This document shows positions 667-12,174 of a DNA stretch of 17,958 nucleotides, in pieces; within the stretch, counting starts at the first letter, position 1; each line of letters begins with the position of its first letter. The position numbers and the translations under genes are program-made. Below the pieces are notes generated by a model, which saw only the letters and a list, made by a program, of their open reading frames with translations, did not search any database and was not told where the DNA came from. The DNA is from Paraspadella gotoi (lineage: Eukaryota; Animalia; Chaetognatha). The DNA lies in the NCBI GenBank assembly GCA_051294375.1, contig JBJCIZ010000929.1, positions 1 through 17,958 on the forward strand, written 5' to 3'.

Positions 667-712
667 GAGCAGACATGTTTCGGCTCACAATACGAGCCTT
701 CATCAGCGCACA
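667..712 (-). ncRNA. Minimal type I hammerhead ribozyme (PLE type), intact core
   Basis: The minus strand reads gtgcg-CTGATGA-a-GGCTC-gtattgt-GAGCC-GAAA-cat-GTC-tgctc. It has the conserved core, a 5-bp stem II, palindromic ACATGT in the stem III position and a short stem I (gcg/tgc). Predicted cleavage is between 672 and 671. Confidence 0.8.
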
Positions 713-1059: not shown

Positions 1060-1105
1060 TGTGCGCTGATGAAGGCTCGTACTGTGAGCCGAAACCATGT
1101 CGCTC
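1060..1105 (+). ncRNA. Minimal type I hammerhead ribozyme, variant copy
   Basis: CTGATGA (1066-1072), GGCTC/GAGCC stem II, GAAA (1091-1094), GTC (1099-1101). Compared with the 667-712 copy it has one extra C and lacks one T, which disturbs the palindrome and stem I. Confidence 0.7.
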
Positions 1106-2256: not shown

Positions 2257-2440
2257 ATTAGGAGAAAAACAATTTGATTGGTTTTTGCAACGAATTGTAT
2301 TTGACGCAATAAGCAGACATGTTTCGACTCTGTAGTTTAAAACGCTGATGAAGACTCTAAACTACAGAGTCGAAGCATGTCTGCTTATTGCCTCAAATAC
2401 AATTCGTTGCCAAAACAAATCAAATTGTTTTTCTCTTAAT
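2257..2440. repeat. 83-bp inverted repeat with 18-nt spacer, derived from a PLE-type terminal repeat
   Basis: Arms 2257-2339 and 2358-2440 are reverse complements with a few mismatches. They share CATGTCTGCT and AATTCGTTGC.AAAA..AAATCAAA with the 619-1152 repeats. Confidence 0.9.
2342..2385 (+). ncRNA. Minimal type I hammerhead ribozyme with GAAA>GAAG core change
   Basis: acg-CTGATGA(2345-2351)-a-GACTCT-aaactac-AGAGTC-GAAG(2372-2375)-cat-GTC-tgc. The truncated inverted arm retains GAAA. Stem II shows a compensatory pair relative to the other copies. Confidence 0.7.
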
Positions 2441-2603
2441 CTATAAACTAAAAAATACCAAAATTTACGACCTATTGCTATGAAAATCAACAAATATTGA
2501 GTTATGATGAATATCAGTTTATCTATACAAATGCAAAAGTATTATTTTCAAAGAAAACATTCATAACCGCTTACACTTGACTCTGCAAAATCTTACGTTT
2601 TCG

Positions 2604-5600
2604 TTATTCGGCCAAGAAAACATTCCGCGCTTCGAATCCTTTTTCAATTGAAAACATGAGATTAAAACGGACCTTTTTCAAGGCATATTTTTTTCCAGAT
2701 AAAGAATCTTTCTTCTTGGGAAAAAATGACATAAACACCTCGAGCGTACTCTCAGGACCAAGATTTTCAGATATCGAAAATAATGTTTTTATATCAATTG
2801 TGTCTATTTTCTCGAGGTAAATCAGGCCGCTGAAATCGCTGACGTTTGGAGGTTTAATGTAACCAGTGCATCGGCTAAGATTTTCTTCGCCCAGGGGTCG
2901 GCCTCGATAAGAACGAATTAATCGTTTTATGCCACCCCTTCTTCCCAGCCATTCTTGAGTTTTGGCATTTCTAGAAAATTGAATCCTATGCTTTAAATCT
3001 TTCAGCTGTTGCATGAGTCTCAGTGATTTACCGTAACATTCTAAATCACCATTTTTCTTCTCTGAACCTATGCCAACTATGAAGCTCACAACGGCTGTGT
3101 AAAAAATAACCAACGGCGATCTGCAGTTTTTCAAACAAGACTCCAAGATTTTTAGAACGTGCCAAGGAGAATGATCTTGCTTGAAATCGGCTAGCCGTAT
3201 ACCAGTCATCCACTCTCTCAAATCAATTGCTAGAGGACTTGGATCTTTTTCTTCCAGGATATTTTGTTCATGCAATTTAATGACTGTTTTCAAGTCATCG
3301 CCTGACACATTTGTCAGGCTACCATAATAATCACTATTTTCTGGTTTGTTTGCTAGCCTATTTAGATACTTTTTTTTTATCATAGCTGCTTGTAAACGTC
3401 TTGAACCCTTAGTATCACCTAAAATTTTTTCAGCTGATAATTTGTCAAACACTGTTTTGTACATCAAATTCGCAGTCAGTAATCGGTCGTTTGCTTCGCT
3501 ATCATGTTCTTCCACACATCGACTGGCCTTATAGATTAACTGATCAATAATTTCAGCAGAATTTATCATGATATCTGCTGCGTCCTTTTTCCACATTTTA
3601 CTTTGTTGTATAAGAGGTGAATACAACTCTTGAATCTTAATTATTCCTTTTTTAGATATTGCACTACAAAACTCTAGTCTCATGTTAGCTTCCGCTAAAA
3701 ATGTTGTGAAATAGTGTTCATATTCCGGCTTTGTATATAATTCACGACTGAAAGTAAAATGTTCTATTCCTCTTTTTATAGTTTTTATATATGCCTTCAT
3801 TATTTCTTCATTATTTGAGGCCAGCGATGAAGATCGTTTTCTTATAAGACAAAGATCCATAAATGCATACATATTGTACACTACCCTTGCCGAGTTTGAA
3901 GCAATTCTGTCGGAACTCGTTTTATTTTTTGAGCAACTTTCAATTCCTTTTTTTACGAGCCTGAGGGCTTCTTCAAAGCAAGTTTCTGCTTCTTTATAAT
4001 CATCACGTCCTAAATAATTAAACCGTCCTAAATGAGCGTGAGCGTGAGGATCTAACTTCAGTTTATCCCTTACTTTTTCTAGCACTCTTCTCCTATCGTC
4101 GATGTCCTTAATTTCCATTATTATTTGAGTGAAACGTTTTCTGTTTTCATCTTCAGCAGAATCCTGGGTATCACGGTCTAAAAATACATTTGTAAGGACT
4201 TTTCTATCAGAGTCGTTAACTTTGTCGCAATCGCCAATTATAAAATCGATGAATTCTTCTGCCAAAATGCTGAGAGCACAGGACGAGGATTCATTTCCTT
4301 CATTATCGTCTTTTTGCTGATTCAGCTCCCTTATCTCTTTTATCGCCAGCCTTAAAACCTCCTTTGCAAGGATATTATGTACCATTTTTATTTTAGTGTC
4401 TTCACTACTATTTGAAGGCTTTACGAGATACTGAAGTAATGTTTCAATTTTTTCTTCATGTAGCATTTCCCCTTCTGGCACACCCATCACTTTAAAAAAT
4501 CTCTGCAACTCTAGATCTCTGCTTCCGCGATGGGCATAAACATCGATAAATGATAAATATTTGCAAACAGTTTTTTGTTCTGAATTCAAGTTACTATAAA
4601 TATTAAAAACGAATGTTTTTACGCCTTTAAATTTATCTATGAATGCAGTTAGATTGAATTCAATTAAGTTGCTATTTGTTTTTTCGAGTTTTTTAAGAGA
4701 GAGCTTTTGCTCTGGAGCAAATTTCGATAACCTGACAATCATCAATCGGGCCTCTGCTTGATCTAATTTACCCGACAAATCAAACTGAACGAGTCGTCCT
4801 GGATTTTTAAAACGTAAAGCTGTAGCCTTAACATGAATTCTTCTCCTTGTAAATAGAATAACAGCAGTAAAAGGCATAAGCATTCGTTTAAGGTCGTTTA
4901 GCAATGCATTATCCGGTTCATCTATTAAAACCAGAAGGGGTAAGCCGGTTTTTTGATAAATGAACAGCACGTGTTCTTCTATTAATTCAGCCAGCTCGGT
5001 GTTAGATTTCTCCATAACTTTGGACTTTACTTGAACACATGGATATTCCTTATGTATGCTCCAAAGCAACTGCATTGCAAGAATGGTGCCCCCTCCTGAT
5101 GGACTGTGTAAAATTTCCACCATTCTACTGCCAGTTTGGTTTTTGAGTAAACAAATGATTTCTGTTTTTATATCATCAAAGCAACTTCGAGGAACAGCAA
5201 TAGAATGTTCATGTAACTTTTGCCAAGTCTCCCAACTTATACTTCCTCCTTTTAAAAACTCCTTTTCCACGTTTTCCAGTTCTTCAGTACTCTCAAAATA
5301 TTCATAAACTTTATTCAAATACAATACATCAAGCGTTTCTTCAATTTTCAAGATATCTAATTGATTAAATTTGGGATTATTTTCACTATTAGGTTCTTTC
5401 ATTGGCAGTAGATACCCTGTGGTTACATAGTTTTTATCACTTGTTTCTTTCCACATATTCGCCAATACTTGGTTTATATTTAGTGGGTAGAAGCACACTT
5501 CTTCCATGGAAAGCTCTTCCAAACATGACATTTCATCATCAGAACATGCTATAAGTTTAACATATTTGACATCTGCAAAGCGTATATCTAATACTTCCAA

Positions 5601-7334
5601 AAATCTTTGTAAATGCTTTTCAAGAGATTTTGAGTCTTTATTCCATAAGAGTAAAATTTTTATCACACTATTGTAACCATTGTTTGAAAATTTTTCCATT
5701 TCTTCAGTTATATTCCGAATGCAAGCAACACTTTCTTTGAACCACTTTTTTGGATCTTTTTCGGATGGTATAAATGGTGTCCCCCTTAAGAATACCCATT
5801 TAGGAGACTGGGCTTCAATTTTTACATGCTTATCTTTCATTGTTTTCAGTTCATATAGTCGGTTTTTGTACTTTTGTATTGAGTGATACAGACCGTCAGT
5901 TAATGACATGTCATCAAAGTCGAGCACTAATAACCAGGGTATTTTTGTAATAGATTTTAGGAAACGTTGATGTTTAGCATCCATTTTTCCTAAAATTAAA
6001 ATGTAGTGACCATAATTTCGTCCAGATTGAAATCGTCCCATAGAGTTACAAAATGATGGGTTATGAAAACCCTCGAGCATTTCTTTTTCTTCCTCACTTA
6101 ACATTTCATTCTGGTCTTCGTTAAACCATTCCATTATACGAGTGTAGGTAGCATGGGCTACTCCGATGATTTCGTTTGAACTACCAATTCTCGCCCACAA
6201 AACGTCTTTTTCTAGGGTTATGCCATCATCAAAGCTTATATCTTGTTTTATAATTGCAGGGCTAACACTCGAATTTTTGCTATTGGCAATCTCAAAAATT
6301 GCAATTCGATGGCTAACTTCAGAGTCTTGGTCGAAATATGAAAATTCATAAAATATGTATTCCGGAATACTGCTTAGGAATTTGTCATTCATGAAAGAAA
6401 ATTGTTTGACAGGATGATCCGATGGCTTCAAGCCTACCACCTGCGCCTTTCCCATCTTATATGAGGGTTTGACCCCAAGTAGAATATATGCTTTTTCGCG
6501 GTCAGGTGTATTCCATAGGCTAACTATATCTTTGAATAAAATCGATTCACTCGGTAGACGCGAATGTACAATAACTGACTTGTTTGGAACTCTGCAGTTG
6601 AGGATTTTTTCAATGTCGTCTTCTTTTAACCGACCTGATTCAAAGTTAAAAAACGGTTCGCTTTCTTTCATAATAGTTTTGTCATTAGCTTGATTTTGTT
6701 GTGGATCTTTTGGCAAGACTTGGTGTAACATAAGTTTAACTTCATCCAAACTATCGAGTACGTCCCCGAAACCTGTCGCGATTTCTTCTTCATATTGACT
6801 CATCAATTTTTCCCAATATTCATTGGACAATTTTACATCGAGCGGTCCACGCCTCACTATTTCTACGTCGCGTTCTCTTTCTGGATCCAAATAAATGATT
6901 GCTTTCTCAATTTTTCTCCACATTTCTTCGAAACGATCTTCATCAATTTCCGGAAAGATCGAGTGAGCCACCTCATTCCTGCATAAGCGAATTTCTTTTA
7001 TGTGCTTGCTGAAATCCCCACACTGCAGGGCTTGGGTACAAAATTTATCAATCAGGTAGGTTAGTAACGTAATGTCCAAATCTTCTTCTACTGGTTCCTT
7101 ATCTTTGGGGAACAACTTGTTAAACTGATTTCGATTTAGAGGCTTATTTCCCTCAGAATTTCCGCCCTTTACATTTTTTAAAATGGCTTGCTTCTTGGGC
7201 ATTAACCATTCGCTCAGGGTCGGCGCGCCCTGGGAGATTCTCAACTTTCGAAGGAACTGTTGCAATGACGAGCTTCCGTGTTTCCAAAGTAGCGTTACCA
7301 ATCGTAAAAAGTTGTTTTGATCGAATTCGGACAT
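2604..7334 (-). CDS. SAMD9-family STAND-like NTPase, 1576 aa: HEPN (DZIP3-type) - AlbA_2-like - SIR2-like - P-loop - TPR - OB-fold; single coding exon
   Basis: Motifs are colinear with human SAMD9 (recalled, in brackets): AYILLGVK...QVVGL (GTIHFGVKD...KIVGI); KIPWLLVLDFDDMSLTDGLY (SIR2-like block); EFLKGGSISWETW (DFYRGGKVSWWNF); LHSPSGGGTILAMQLLWSIHKEYPC ([25 protein letters not shown]); PLLVLIDE Walker B; DPHAHAHLGRFNY..DDYKEA TPR at aa 1095; KVRFNLMFSIEKGFEARNV (VSFYLGFSIGGPLAYDI). The N-terminus NFLRL...Q..KLFP...DLDITLLTYLI...IRLCRNEVAH...FEEMW fits DZIP3-type HEPN. In-frame stop 15 nt upstream of the ATG and A at -3. Confidence 0.9.
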   Translation of the reverse strand: MSEFDQNNFLRLVTLLWKHGSSSLQQFLRKLRISQGAPTLSEWLMPKKQAILKNVKGGNSEGNKPLNRNQFNKLFPKDKEPVEEDLDITLLTYLIDKFCTQALQCGDFSKHIKEIRLCRNEVAHSIFPEIDEDRFEEMWRKIEKAIIYLDPERERDVEIVRRGPLDVKLSNEYWEKLMSQYEEEIATGFGDVLDSLDEVKLMLHQVLPKDPQQNQANDKTIMKESEPFFNFESGRLKEDDIEKILNCRVPNKSVIVHSRLPSESILFKDIVSLWNTPDREKAYILLGVKPSYKMGKAQVVGLKPSDHPVKQFSFMNDKFLSSIPEYIFYEFSYFDQDSEVSHRIAIFEIANSKNSSVSPAIIKQDISFDDGITLEKDVLWARIGSSNEIIGVAHATYTRIMEWFNEDQNEMLSEEEKEMLEGFHNPSFCNSMGRFQSGRNYGHYILILGKMDAKHQRFLKSITKIPWLLVLDFDDMSLTDGLYHSIQKYKNRLYELKTMKDKHVKIEAQSPKWVFLRGTPFIPSEKDPKKWFKESVACIRNITEEMEKFSNNGYNSVIKILLLWNKDSKSLEKHLQRFLEVLDIRFADVKYVKLIACSDDEMSCLEELSMEEVCFYPLNINQVLANMWKETSDKNYVTTGYLLPMKEPNSENNPKFNQLDILKIEETLDVLYLNKVYEYFESTEELENVEKEFLKGGSISWETWQKLHEHSIAVPRSCFDDIKTEIICLLKNQTGSRMVEILHSPSGGGTILAMQLLWSIHKEYPCVQVKSKVMEKSNTELAELIEEHVLFIYQKTGLPLLVLIDEPDNALLNDLKRMLMPFTAVILFTRRRIHVKATALRFKNPGRLVQFDLSGKLDQAEARLMIVRLSKFAPEQKLSLKKLEKTNSNLIEFNLTAFIDKFKGVKTFVFNIYSNLNSEQKTVCKYLSFIDVYAHRGSRDLELQRFFKVMGVPEGEMLHEEKIETLLQYLVKPSNSSEDTKIKMVHNILAKEVLRLAIKEIRELNQQKDDNEGNESSSCALSILAEEFIDFIIGDCDKVNDSDRKVLTNVFLDRDTQDSAEDENRKRFTQIIMEIKDIDDRRRVLEKVRDKLKLDPHAHAHLGRFNYLGRDDYKEAETCFEEALRLVKKGIESCSKNKTSSDRIASNSARVVYNMYAFMDLCLIRKRSSSLASNNEEIMKAYIKTIKRGIEHFTFSRELYTKPEYEHYFTTFLAEANMRLEFCSAISKKGIIKIQELYSPLIQQSKMWKKDAADIMINSAEIIDQLIYKASRCVEEHDSEANDRLLTANLMYKTVFDKLSAEKILGDTKGSRRLQAAMIKKKYLNRLANKPENSDYYGSLTNVSGDDLKTVIKLHEQNILEEKDPSPLAIDLREWMTGIRLADFKQDHSPWHVLKILESCLKNCRSPLVIFYTAVVSFIVGIGSEKKNGDLECYGKSLRLMQQLKDLKHRIQFSRNAKTQEWLGRRGGIKRLIRSYRGRPLGEENLSRCTGYIKPPNVSDFSGLIYLEKIDTIDIKTLFSISENLGPESTLEVFMSFFPKKKDSLSGKKYALKKVRFNLMFSIEKGFEARNVFLAE

Positions 7335-7537
7335 TCTGTTCTGGTGTCACGTTTTCATTTTAATGTTGTAGAAAAATGAAGTTTTGTTTGTTCCTCCTAA
7401 TATAATTGGATTTTACTTTATTCGGACCAAAAAAAAAAAAAAAAAAAACCGGTTAGAATCCAGTTTTTTTGACGAGAGCGATCAGTGCCAGATCTTAAAG
7501 AAAACCTTCATGTCGTTATTATTAAAGCCGAGTTGCA

Positions 7538-7561
7538 GGCTGCGGCTGCGGCTGCGGCTGC
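7538..7561. repeat. (GGCTGC)4 GC-rich microsatellite
   Basis: Direct reading; part of a CpG-rich patch about 200 nt upstream of the SAMD9-like ATG. Confidence 0.85.
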
Positions 7562-8146
7562 GACGGCGACCGCGGCGTCAGCGAAGGTTCGAGATTTCTT
7601 GAATATTTTGAACGCTCACTTATTAACATTATTGGAATGTTAAAAATAATTCTTATTGTTAAATTTTAATTTTTTTAAAAAATTTTAAATGCCGATTGAG
7701 AATTGTTAGAAAAAATACTAAAAAATTCGAATCCTAACTATCGGTTTAAACTTAAAATTAAAAACCCTTTGTCATTCAACAATCAGTAGAATTTCTGAGA
7801 ATTTTTACTCAACTATCAACAGGTTGCAAATGTGAATGAAAGAATTTAGCTTGACATTAAATTTTAACATATTTTTTTTTTTAAATAAAAGTGTTCTCCC
7901 GATTCCTGGGGGGGTGTGTCTAACAAAGAATGGTCCTTGCTTTAGGGTAAGGGGAATGAAGGAGATTCCGCCGCGTCAATATCGCTGGTGAGGCAAATAA
8001 GGTGAGAAGAATTCTCAAACAATAAAGGTTTTCCGAAATAGTTTTTTATTATTTGTTCTTTCGGTTTTTATTTCAGTTATTCATTTTTCTCTTTTGTCAT
8101 GAAATAGGATTCACAAATTCAATTATTTATTTTTAAAGATATTGTA

Positions 8147-10961: not shown

Positions 10962-11670
10962 TCTCTCTCCTCATCTCTCTTCTTTTTTTTTTTTTTTTTT
11001 TTTTTTCTTTTTTTCCGCTTTAATCTTCCGAATGTTTATCTTTTTTCTGAACATTACAAAATAATATTTTTTTTTTATTTTTTAGAAGTTTTTGTAAGTT
11101 GTAAAAAAAGGTCAAAACTTTTGAAGACAAAACCGATGCCATTTTTTATCAGCAGGTCATTCCGTGCCCAAGAGATAACTCACTCTCTCTCTCTTCTACT
11201 TCTGTCTTCTCTCGTCGTCTCTGCTCTCTTCATCTCTGCGTCTTCGTGCTCCTCTCTCTCTCTCTCGTCTGCTTTTTCTTTCGCCCCGTTTCCCCGTTGC
11301 ATTCAACTCGGGTTGAAGAAAAATTCTTGCTGCAATGAATCGATGAATGGATTGATAAATGAATAAATAGATTGATGAATGAATTGAGAAATGAATAAAT
11401 GGATTGATAAATGAATGAATGGATCGATGAACGGATCAATGCATCAATTGATAAATAGTTTTGATTGATATCTTGCTTGGATCTTGTAACACGGATATTG
11501 AACCTAAATCCGCTTGAAAGCCTTTTCAAAGTCAAGGAACAAAGATATTTTGTTAATTGAAAGTATTTAATTGATTGCAACAAGTTGGCAGAAAATCATA
11601 CACACAGCCAATACAGATATAAAGCAGCTAATCTCGTCCGCCACATTTTCTAAAAGCGCCCTATTTCATT

Positions 11671-11866
11671 TAAAGATTAGGTTAGAGGTCAGGGATAAAG
11701 ATTAGGTTAAAGATTAGGTTAGAGGTTAGGGATAAAGATTAGGTTAAAGATTAGGTTAGAGGTCAGGGATAAAGATTAGGTTAAAGATTAGGTTAGAGGT
11801 CAGGGATAAAGATTAGGTTAAAGATTAGGTTAGAGGTCAGGGATAAAGATTAGGTTAAAGATTAGG
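11671..11866 (+). repeat. 37-bp minisatellite, about 5.3 copies, built from TTAGG/TCAGGG telomere-like words
   Basis: Unit TAAAGATTAGGTTAGAGGTCAGGGATAAAGATTAGGT at 11671, 11708, 11745, 11782 and 11819, partial at 11856. One C>T difference in copy 2. Confidence 0.95.
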
Positions 11867-12174
11867 GTGAGAGATGAAGTTAATGAGTTTTGGTTTGGGA
11901 TTAAGGTGACAGATTAAGGTTGTGATTCGCTTATTGTGACGTTTGTTAACAAATCATCGGGTCAGTTAAATACGCAATACGCAACCACTACGAAAAGAAA
12001 GGAAATTCACGAATCAATCATAAATATAATATTATTCCTATTTTTAAATATAATCTTAAGCGCAATTAATTATTATTTTCTAATAATTTCTCTTGATTCC
12101 ACTATTTTTACCCAATTTCTGTCATTCTAACAATATGCAAATGAGATTTTGAGCAATCAACGGCACGCGACCAC

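Follow-up and report, generated by a model that had tools for sequence, protein, structure and literature searches.

Introduction

Activation of human SAMD9 has been described in structural terms: the protein is closed when it holds ATP, and activation needs SIR2/SIR2 and OB/SIR2 contacts through which the N-terminal effectors are brought together (PMC13600222, in its available text). The ATP site is made up of H737, GGT 742-744, D799, R837 and H985 (PMC13600222), and SAMD9 cutting requires E184, E196, E218 and D241 (PMC10246899). SAMD9L dimers use the same domains, the SAM domain being dispensable (10.64898/2026.02.01.703102). In bacterial Avs9, the AlbA residues are E14, D19, D45 and E65, and the D45N change abolishes killing (PMC12680541). 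Among invertebrate proteins, Lingula XP_013415988.1 is listed by PMC5445408 in its table of the SAMD9 family, and the varied N-termini of invertebrate SAMD9 homologues, which the initial annotation of the locus studied here had mentioned, are already in print there.

HEPN domains of the DZIP3 type have been described on dozens of NLR-like proteins of corals and bivalves, in fusions with NACHT, TPR, CARD and Death domains, and in the available text of these papers their cutting of RNA is a prediction only (PMC3710099, PMC9646362, PMC8260672). The characterized HEPN nucleases depend on two juxtaposed motifs, and the active ones typically have Asn at motif position 2 (10.1101/760058).

Here, we describe a gene of the chaetognath Paraspadella gotoi, located in a window of 17,958 nucleotides (the whole stretch of DNA that was analysed), whose predicted product joins a DZIP3-type HEPN domain to a SAMD9-type body with an eroded AlbA nuclease motif.

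Results

Reading frame and domain order

One frame on the minus strand of the window is free of stop codons between positions 2604 and 7334, and this 4.7-kb open reading frame, a single exon as read from genomic DNA, encodes 1576 amino acids. The frame starts with ATG and is preceded by an in-frame stop 5 codons upstream; a further exon may lie upstream of the ATG. The window is animal-like, repeat-rich DNA with this one long frame only. PADLOC and NCBIfam returned no match for the locus, no tRNA genes were found, and Rfam gave sub-threshold hairpin matches only. The features of the gene, in window coordinates, are as follows.

2604..7334, minus strand: whole open reading frame, 1576 aa, in the order HEPN, linker, AlbA-like, SIR2-like, STAND NOD, TPR, OB
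6810..7334, minus strand: DZIP3/hRUL138-type HEPN, aa ~1-175 (Pfam PF18738 at aa 52-172)
6963..6980, minus strand: HEPN motif R119-N120-x3-H124, from the ORF translation; R, N and H are the same in a diverged second copy
6630..6809, minus strand: linker, aa ~176-235, with approximate boundaries, between the Pfam HEPN match and the AlbA alignment
6105..6629, minus strand: AlbA_2-like, aa ~236-410, catalytic motif eroded (local search against the AlbA of relatives; site counts in the alignment)
5430..6047, minus strand: SIR2-like Rossmann, aa ~430-635 (alignment to Lingula XP_013415988.1; structural match to the DSR2 sirtuin)
4125..5417, minus strand: STAND NOD with lead-in, aa ~640-1070 (H743, G748-G749-T750 as SAMD9-type Walker A, D805, R831, H986)
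2985..4124, minus strand: TPR/helical, aa ~1071-1450 (Pfam TPR below cut-off at 1098-1128; model all-helical)
2607..2957, minus strand: C-terminal OB fold, aa ~1460-1576 (alignment to the OB of XP_013415988.1; strands in the model; aligned to SAMD9 residue 1589)

Fifteen allelic differences were found within the frame, of which eight are silent and none creates a stop. The junction of HEPN with the body is carried by one 2440-nt contig from run X1 (4472-6911), which reaches from the last part of HEPN into the NOD; X1 may be the source sample. In record 14 of X6 (6659-7029), which comes from another study, the motif is joined to the linker up to ~aa 226. None of the contigs listed for independent samples among the public runs crosses from HEPN to AlbA. 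A 5704-nt joint that would skip the gene (2415-8120) was set aside, one of its sides being 21 bases in a high-copy repeat. Run X5 was likewise discarded as a source of RNA: its tables are nearly equal to those of the DNA run X6, and the two are probably the same data.

A SAMD9-type body with a conserved ATP site

Human SAMD9 was the only protein matched in a sequence search of the PDB (6 sequences; best E 3.9e-12, aa 440-973), and a 30-row profile retrieved it at E 6.8e-35. The model of aa 420-1576, built from a 52-row alignment, reached a pLDDT of 85.5. When this model was submitted to Foldseek, the top 6 matches were human SAMD9 (E 2.7e-32 to 5.5e-29), followed by Avs5 (E 3.9e-12). Sequence and predicted fold thus agree on a SAMD9-family STAND body, as had been annotated. 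VIA-align superposed residues 4-1156 of the model on SAMD9 389-1589 (Z 19.8, rmsd ~32), and it follows that the domains of SAMD9 are matched but packed differently (TM 0.35); this arrangement, unlike that of SAMD9, counts against the reading preferred below. Residues 5-211 of the body model matched the DSR2 sirtuin domain (Z 11.5, rmsd 3.6), and the SIR2-like region aligns to the SIR2-like coordinates given for XP_013415988.1 in the supplement of PMC5445408.

The Walker A of the SAMD9 family, GG[TS] with an upstream His, is present as H743 and G748-G749-T750. All four positions are conserved in each of 51 relatives (T or S at 750), and the remaining ATP-site residues R831, D805 and H986 are conserved in 50, 47 and 44 of them, respectively. 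The family core order AlbA - SIR2-like - P-loop - TPR - OB is present as well. The description of the locus as a "complete SAMD9 body" therefore holds for the core domains and their order, but not for the catalytic motif of AlbA. In the Pfam scan of the protein, HEPN_DZIP3 was recovered, AlbA had no match and TPR stayed below the cut-off.

Relatives and the variable N-terminal slot

A search of 50% representatives yielded 573 proteins at E <= 0.001, and the best 150 of the 573 were examined. In a tree of 143 cores, the P. gotoi protein grouped with 74 others, with a support of 1.0, apart from the bacterial-type rows; 13 of 20 proteins checked carry names, and these come from molluscs, a brachiopod, a crinoid and tunicates. 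A quick tree of 32 rows confirmed this grouping: it placed the protein in one clade with Lingula XP_013415988.1, a published SAMD9-family member (SH-aLRT 99), on a long terminal branch of 1.8 changes per site. In the unconstrained tree, bacterial rows came between the invertebrate clade and human-type SAMD9, the latter represented by two metagenome proxies; with the same proxies, a single animal clade was not rejected by the AU test (p 0.31). The invertebrate clade may have arisen separately from bacterial Avs9-like genes, by another transfer of a whole gene into animals.

Pfam found neither HEPN_DZIP3 nor SAM in any of 68 relatives scanned (68 of the best 150 of 573). Instead, their N-termini gave matches to CARD, Death, RHIM and winged-helix/OST-HTH domains, several of them below the cut-off. 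A Pfam scan of the P. gotoi protein also showed no N-terminal SAM of the vertebrate type, and in the order of domains HEPN stands where SAM would be. Since there is no SAM in the 68 relatives scanned, HEPN is not a SAM replacement in this lineage, contrary to the initial annotation; it fills a variable N-terminal slot. A profile found a winged-helix-like domain in 28 of the 75 clade members (6 of the 28 being profile seeds), and 57 of the 75 have a zinc-ribbon-like Cys-pair tail at the C-terminus, which the P. gotoi protein is without. In the P0009-P0090 group of the invertebrate SAMD9 clade, the winged-helix/OST-HTH-like front is sometimes accompanied by a weak RHIM match. The winged-helix-like front and the Cys-pair tail are both missing from the domain table of PMC5445408.

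With the P. gotoi HEPN as a query, no match was obtained among 157 other proteins or 32 metagenome loci, many of which are truncated; nor did this query find a locus in metagenome contigs, viral contigs or plasmids, or a solved structure by sequence. Word-based searches returned 2 bacterial matches and none among 361 candidates (aa 1-200) or 5811 (alignment A1), blanks that carry no weight, since relatives exist. In the ESM Atlas, a cluster with 84 members, represented by a protein of 1444 aa, has HEPN_DZIP3 on 45%. Its score, computed with no alignment, was 0.91 with the whole protein and 0.86 with HEPN removed. As a lead, the cluster suggests that the combination of HEPN and a SAMD9-like body recurs, and the caution in the initial annotation, that databases may already contain the fusion, seems justified.

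The HEPN domain and its motif

The Pfam profile HEPN_DZIP3 (PF18738), which is 144 positions long, was matched at its positions 15-143 by aa 52-172, with E 8.3e-14 and a score of 52 bits where 27 is the cut-off. The domain had been annotated at aa ~5-150; its type stands, but its end does not, as the domain reaches ~aa 172. The motif R119-N-E-V-A-H124 was found exactly where it had been reported, at nt 6963-6980. Because R-x4-H is found at two places in the protein, 119 and 1272, the bare pattern is weak evidence. A single-sequence model of aa 1-433 showed aa 1-184 as all-helical at a poor pLDDT of 36.5; a wide fold search with this uninformative model gave a best Z of 6.1, to unrelated proteins, with no HEPN or AlbA among the matches listed.

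A second HEPN copy, 83% identical, is present in the same species; it was seen in X9 (155 nt with 26 differences) and also in X6. In this copy, the codon for Arg119 has changed at 2 bases without altering the amino acid, N120 and H124 are the same, and residues 125, 126 and 127 differ. The motif is thus conserved in the one homologue checked. The 28 differences listed between the copies alter 22 codons, 10 of them silently, and over codons 93-136 pS is 0.58 vs. pN 0.13, uncorrected (Fisher p 8.5e-6). In this comparison, R, N and H are held by purifying selection, as expected of a catalytic site. The second copy is seen here as a HEPN piece; X6 also contains a diverged AlbA piece, which may come from another gene.

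In addition, a variant copy with 5 differences at 6837-6911 was seen in all four runs compared; it leaves the window sequence where the linker starts. We read it as a putative paralogue with a diverged linker, or with another partner.

The HEPN domain could also be mainly an interaction module, comparable to SAM, CARD or Death in other members of the SAMD9 family. Once activated, the sensor would then attract HEPN proteins encoded elsewhere, and any active site would form in trans. Since relatives carry non-enzymatic domains in the N-terminal slot, the slot need not hold an enzyme, and adaptor-type domains do occupy it in relatives (PMC5445408). Furthermore, invertebrates have undergone large expansions of HEPN_DZIP3 proteins, some carrying NACHT and others lacking it (PMC9646362, PMC8260672), and P. 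gotoi has at least one other HEPN copy. However, selection on R, N and H is of the kind seen for a catalytic site, and no partner was identified. We consider this explanation unlikely.

That the fusion is a recent accident of domain shuffling with no function in immunity, or that it is an RNase for stress or housekeeping which has nothing to do with infection, is in our view improbable. Either would fit the long branch and the fact that HEPN is missing from every close relative seen; neither is easily reconciled with a 4.7-kb open frame in which allelic differences bring no stop, with purifying selection between the HEPN copies, with the apparent presence of the same combination in an Atlas cluster, and with the immune context throughout the family.

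Erosion of the AlbA nuclease motif

In a local search, aa ~236-410 matched the AlbA regions of relatives with E down to 1e-14, and they align to the published AlbA coordinates of the Lingula protein; in addition to the absence of a Pfam AlbA match, a PDB search with this part gave chance matches only. The catalytic sites of SAMD9 and Avs9 were equated by motif spacing with E15, D20, D40, and E60 or D77 of the bacterial match P0002, the mapping being an alignment to bacterial relatives plus motif spacing, with no structural overlay. An AlbA match was obtained for 100 of 153 proteins, and the acidic triad was counted in rows covering all three columns, three animal-type fragments being placed in the invertebrate group. 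On this count, 56 of 58 bacterial-type rows have an intact triad, compared with 0 of 34 invertebrate-type rows. In the P. gotoi protein, the triad columns hold P, I and D269, of which only D269 is acidic; the fourth acidic site is ambiguous and corresponds to K289 or, by a one-column shift, to D306. The motif E-x4-D-F-K occurs in 57 of 61 bacterial domains and 2 of 38 invertebrate domains, and does not occur in the P. gotoi protein. All 36 of 36 invertebrate domains retain D269, which corresponds to D45 of Avs9, and this invariance suggests that AlbA still does something; it may bind RNA or metal.

Alternatively, AlbA could have kept its nuclease activity with a rearranged active site; it would then be either a second RNase of the protein or the principal one. 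Besides the invariant D269, W274-N275 is invariant in alignment A1, D306 may match the conserved acidic pair, by the shift mentioned above, and a diverged copy has Asp at 307. The loss of E-x4-D-F-K from nearly all invertebrate domains and from this one argues the other way, as does the finding that single acidic-residue changes abolish activity in SAMD9 (PMC10246899) and Avs9 (PMC12680541), and an active AlbA is, in our estimate, quite improbable.

Since the AlbA triad is absent, HEPN carries the only intact nuclease motif in the protein, and erosion of the AlbA motif therefore makes a stronger case for HEPN as the effector. The idea that the arrival of HEPN caused the decay was rejected: the decay is clade-wide and is seen in relatives without HEPN, so the loss of AlbA is not a consequence of the gain of HEPN. 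The invertebrate relatives checked lack both HEPN and the triad, so that the greater part of the clade functions with neither motif intact.

The AlbA of the invertebrate clade is of the bacterial type, and bacterial Avs9-like proteins give this clade far better scores than human SAMD9 does.

Repeats elsewhere in the window

Fold-back repeats lie downstream of the gene, at 2234-2463 and 619-1152, with 106-nt arms that are 87% complementary and further arms of 87 and 43 nt. They are a high-copy element family; contig depth is very high at 2228-2441. The repeats contain a CUGAUGA - short stem - GAAA layout at ~1066-1095 (plus strand), 678-707 (minus strand) and 2345-2373 (plus strand), which we take to recall the minimal hammerhead ribozymes of Penelope-like elements. 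The stem folds, with weak z-scores, and Rfam listed no hammerhead for the window. A tandem array of a ~35-nt unit with TTAGG-like words is located at ~11670-11870.

Discussion

We propose that the P. gotoi protein is an intact SAMD9-type STAND with an AlbA domain devoid of its nuclease motif, in which HEPN is the likely RNase effector, switched by dimerization of the sensor, probably in an intracellular immune response. We regard this reading as just on the probable side. Sequence and predicted fold show the SIR2-like, NOD, TPR and OB body with the ATP-site residues of SAMD9. By analogy with human SAMD9, the protein would rest in a closed, ATP-bound state, and a trigger would favor SIR2/SIR2 and OB/SIR2 dimers. 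Two R-N-x3-H motifs would then meet and, as in other HEPN enzymes, make up a single active site that needs no metal. The RNA that is cut could be cellular or viral (tRNA, rRNA or mRNA), and translation would stall, while the eroded AlbA might serve as a spacer or an RNA-binding helper. The gene would presumably be expressed, and its role could be antiviral.

The mechanistic fit between an oligomerizing sensor and HEPN, already pointed out in the initial annotation, is good, since SAMD9 is activated by dimerization and HEPN RNases need two motifs. What counts against HEPN as an RNase is that the literature on the DZIP3 type only predicts such activity. The output of HEPN is cleanly testable here, because the activation switch is structurally understood from human SAMD9 and the resident nuclease motif is gone.

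Tentatively, one can envisage that an animal SAMD9 lineage lost the AlbA tRNase early and that this branch re-armed the same ATP-bound, dimer-activated sensor with a HEPN RNase, a history that we find plausible but somewhat short of probable. If it is true, a single invertebrate protein would combine a HEPN ribonuclease with the sensor that gates it, and would offer a direct test of whether the large animal family of DZIP3-type HEPN domains are immune RNases. The loss of the triad is clade-wide, and many invertebrate "SAMD9-like" proteins are therefore probably not tRNases, which affects how this annotation should be read.

Comparison with known systems

With human SAMD9/SAMD9L (PDB 9zjr and related), the P. 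gotoi protein shares the fold from SIR2-like to OB and the ATP-site residues, at 15-17% identity structurally; it differs in having no SAM, an eroded AlbA tRNase motif and an added HEPN. It scores 47.8 bits against human SAMD9 and 137 bits against a bacterial relative, by the same program in different databases. Collinearity with bacterial Avs9-like proteins (AlbA_2 + nSTAND5) starts in AlbA and lasts to the end, at 23% identity over aa 252-1473, and includes the helix motif around D269. These bacterial proteins keep the triad in the proportion given above and have nothing before AlbA in the rows shown, whereas the P. gotoi protein has lost the triad and has a HEPN front. "Avs9-like" here denotes architecture only, and the comparison with published Avs9 (PMC12680541) is by description.

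Relatives of the Lingula XP_013415988.1 type (23-26% identity over 1300-1400 aa) share the AlbA - SIR2-like - GGT-type P-loop - TPR - OB order. Their front is winged-helix-like, CARD, Death or RHIM, in contrast to the HEPN of P. gotoi, and most have the Cys-pair tail that it lacks. Invertebrate HEPN_DZIP3-NACHT NLRs (PMC3710099, PMC9646362, PMC8260672) place the same HEPN family before STAND + repeat sensors, with the same proposed logic; as described in the available text, they have NACHT and are without AlbA, SIR2-like and OB, whereas the P. gotoi protein has a SAMD9-type NOD.

A HEPN-SAMD9 fusion was not found in the literature searched, on which a pearl oyster supplement and figure architectures may bear, or in the supplements of PMC5445408, PMC12680541 and PMC3710099 (the last two as short text), and SAMD9 does not appear in the accessible part of PMC8195603. 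In invertebrates, NACHT-type STANDs that carry HEPN are well documented; a SAMD9 body as the carrier of HEPN did not appear in the literature searched.
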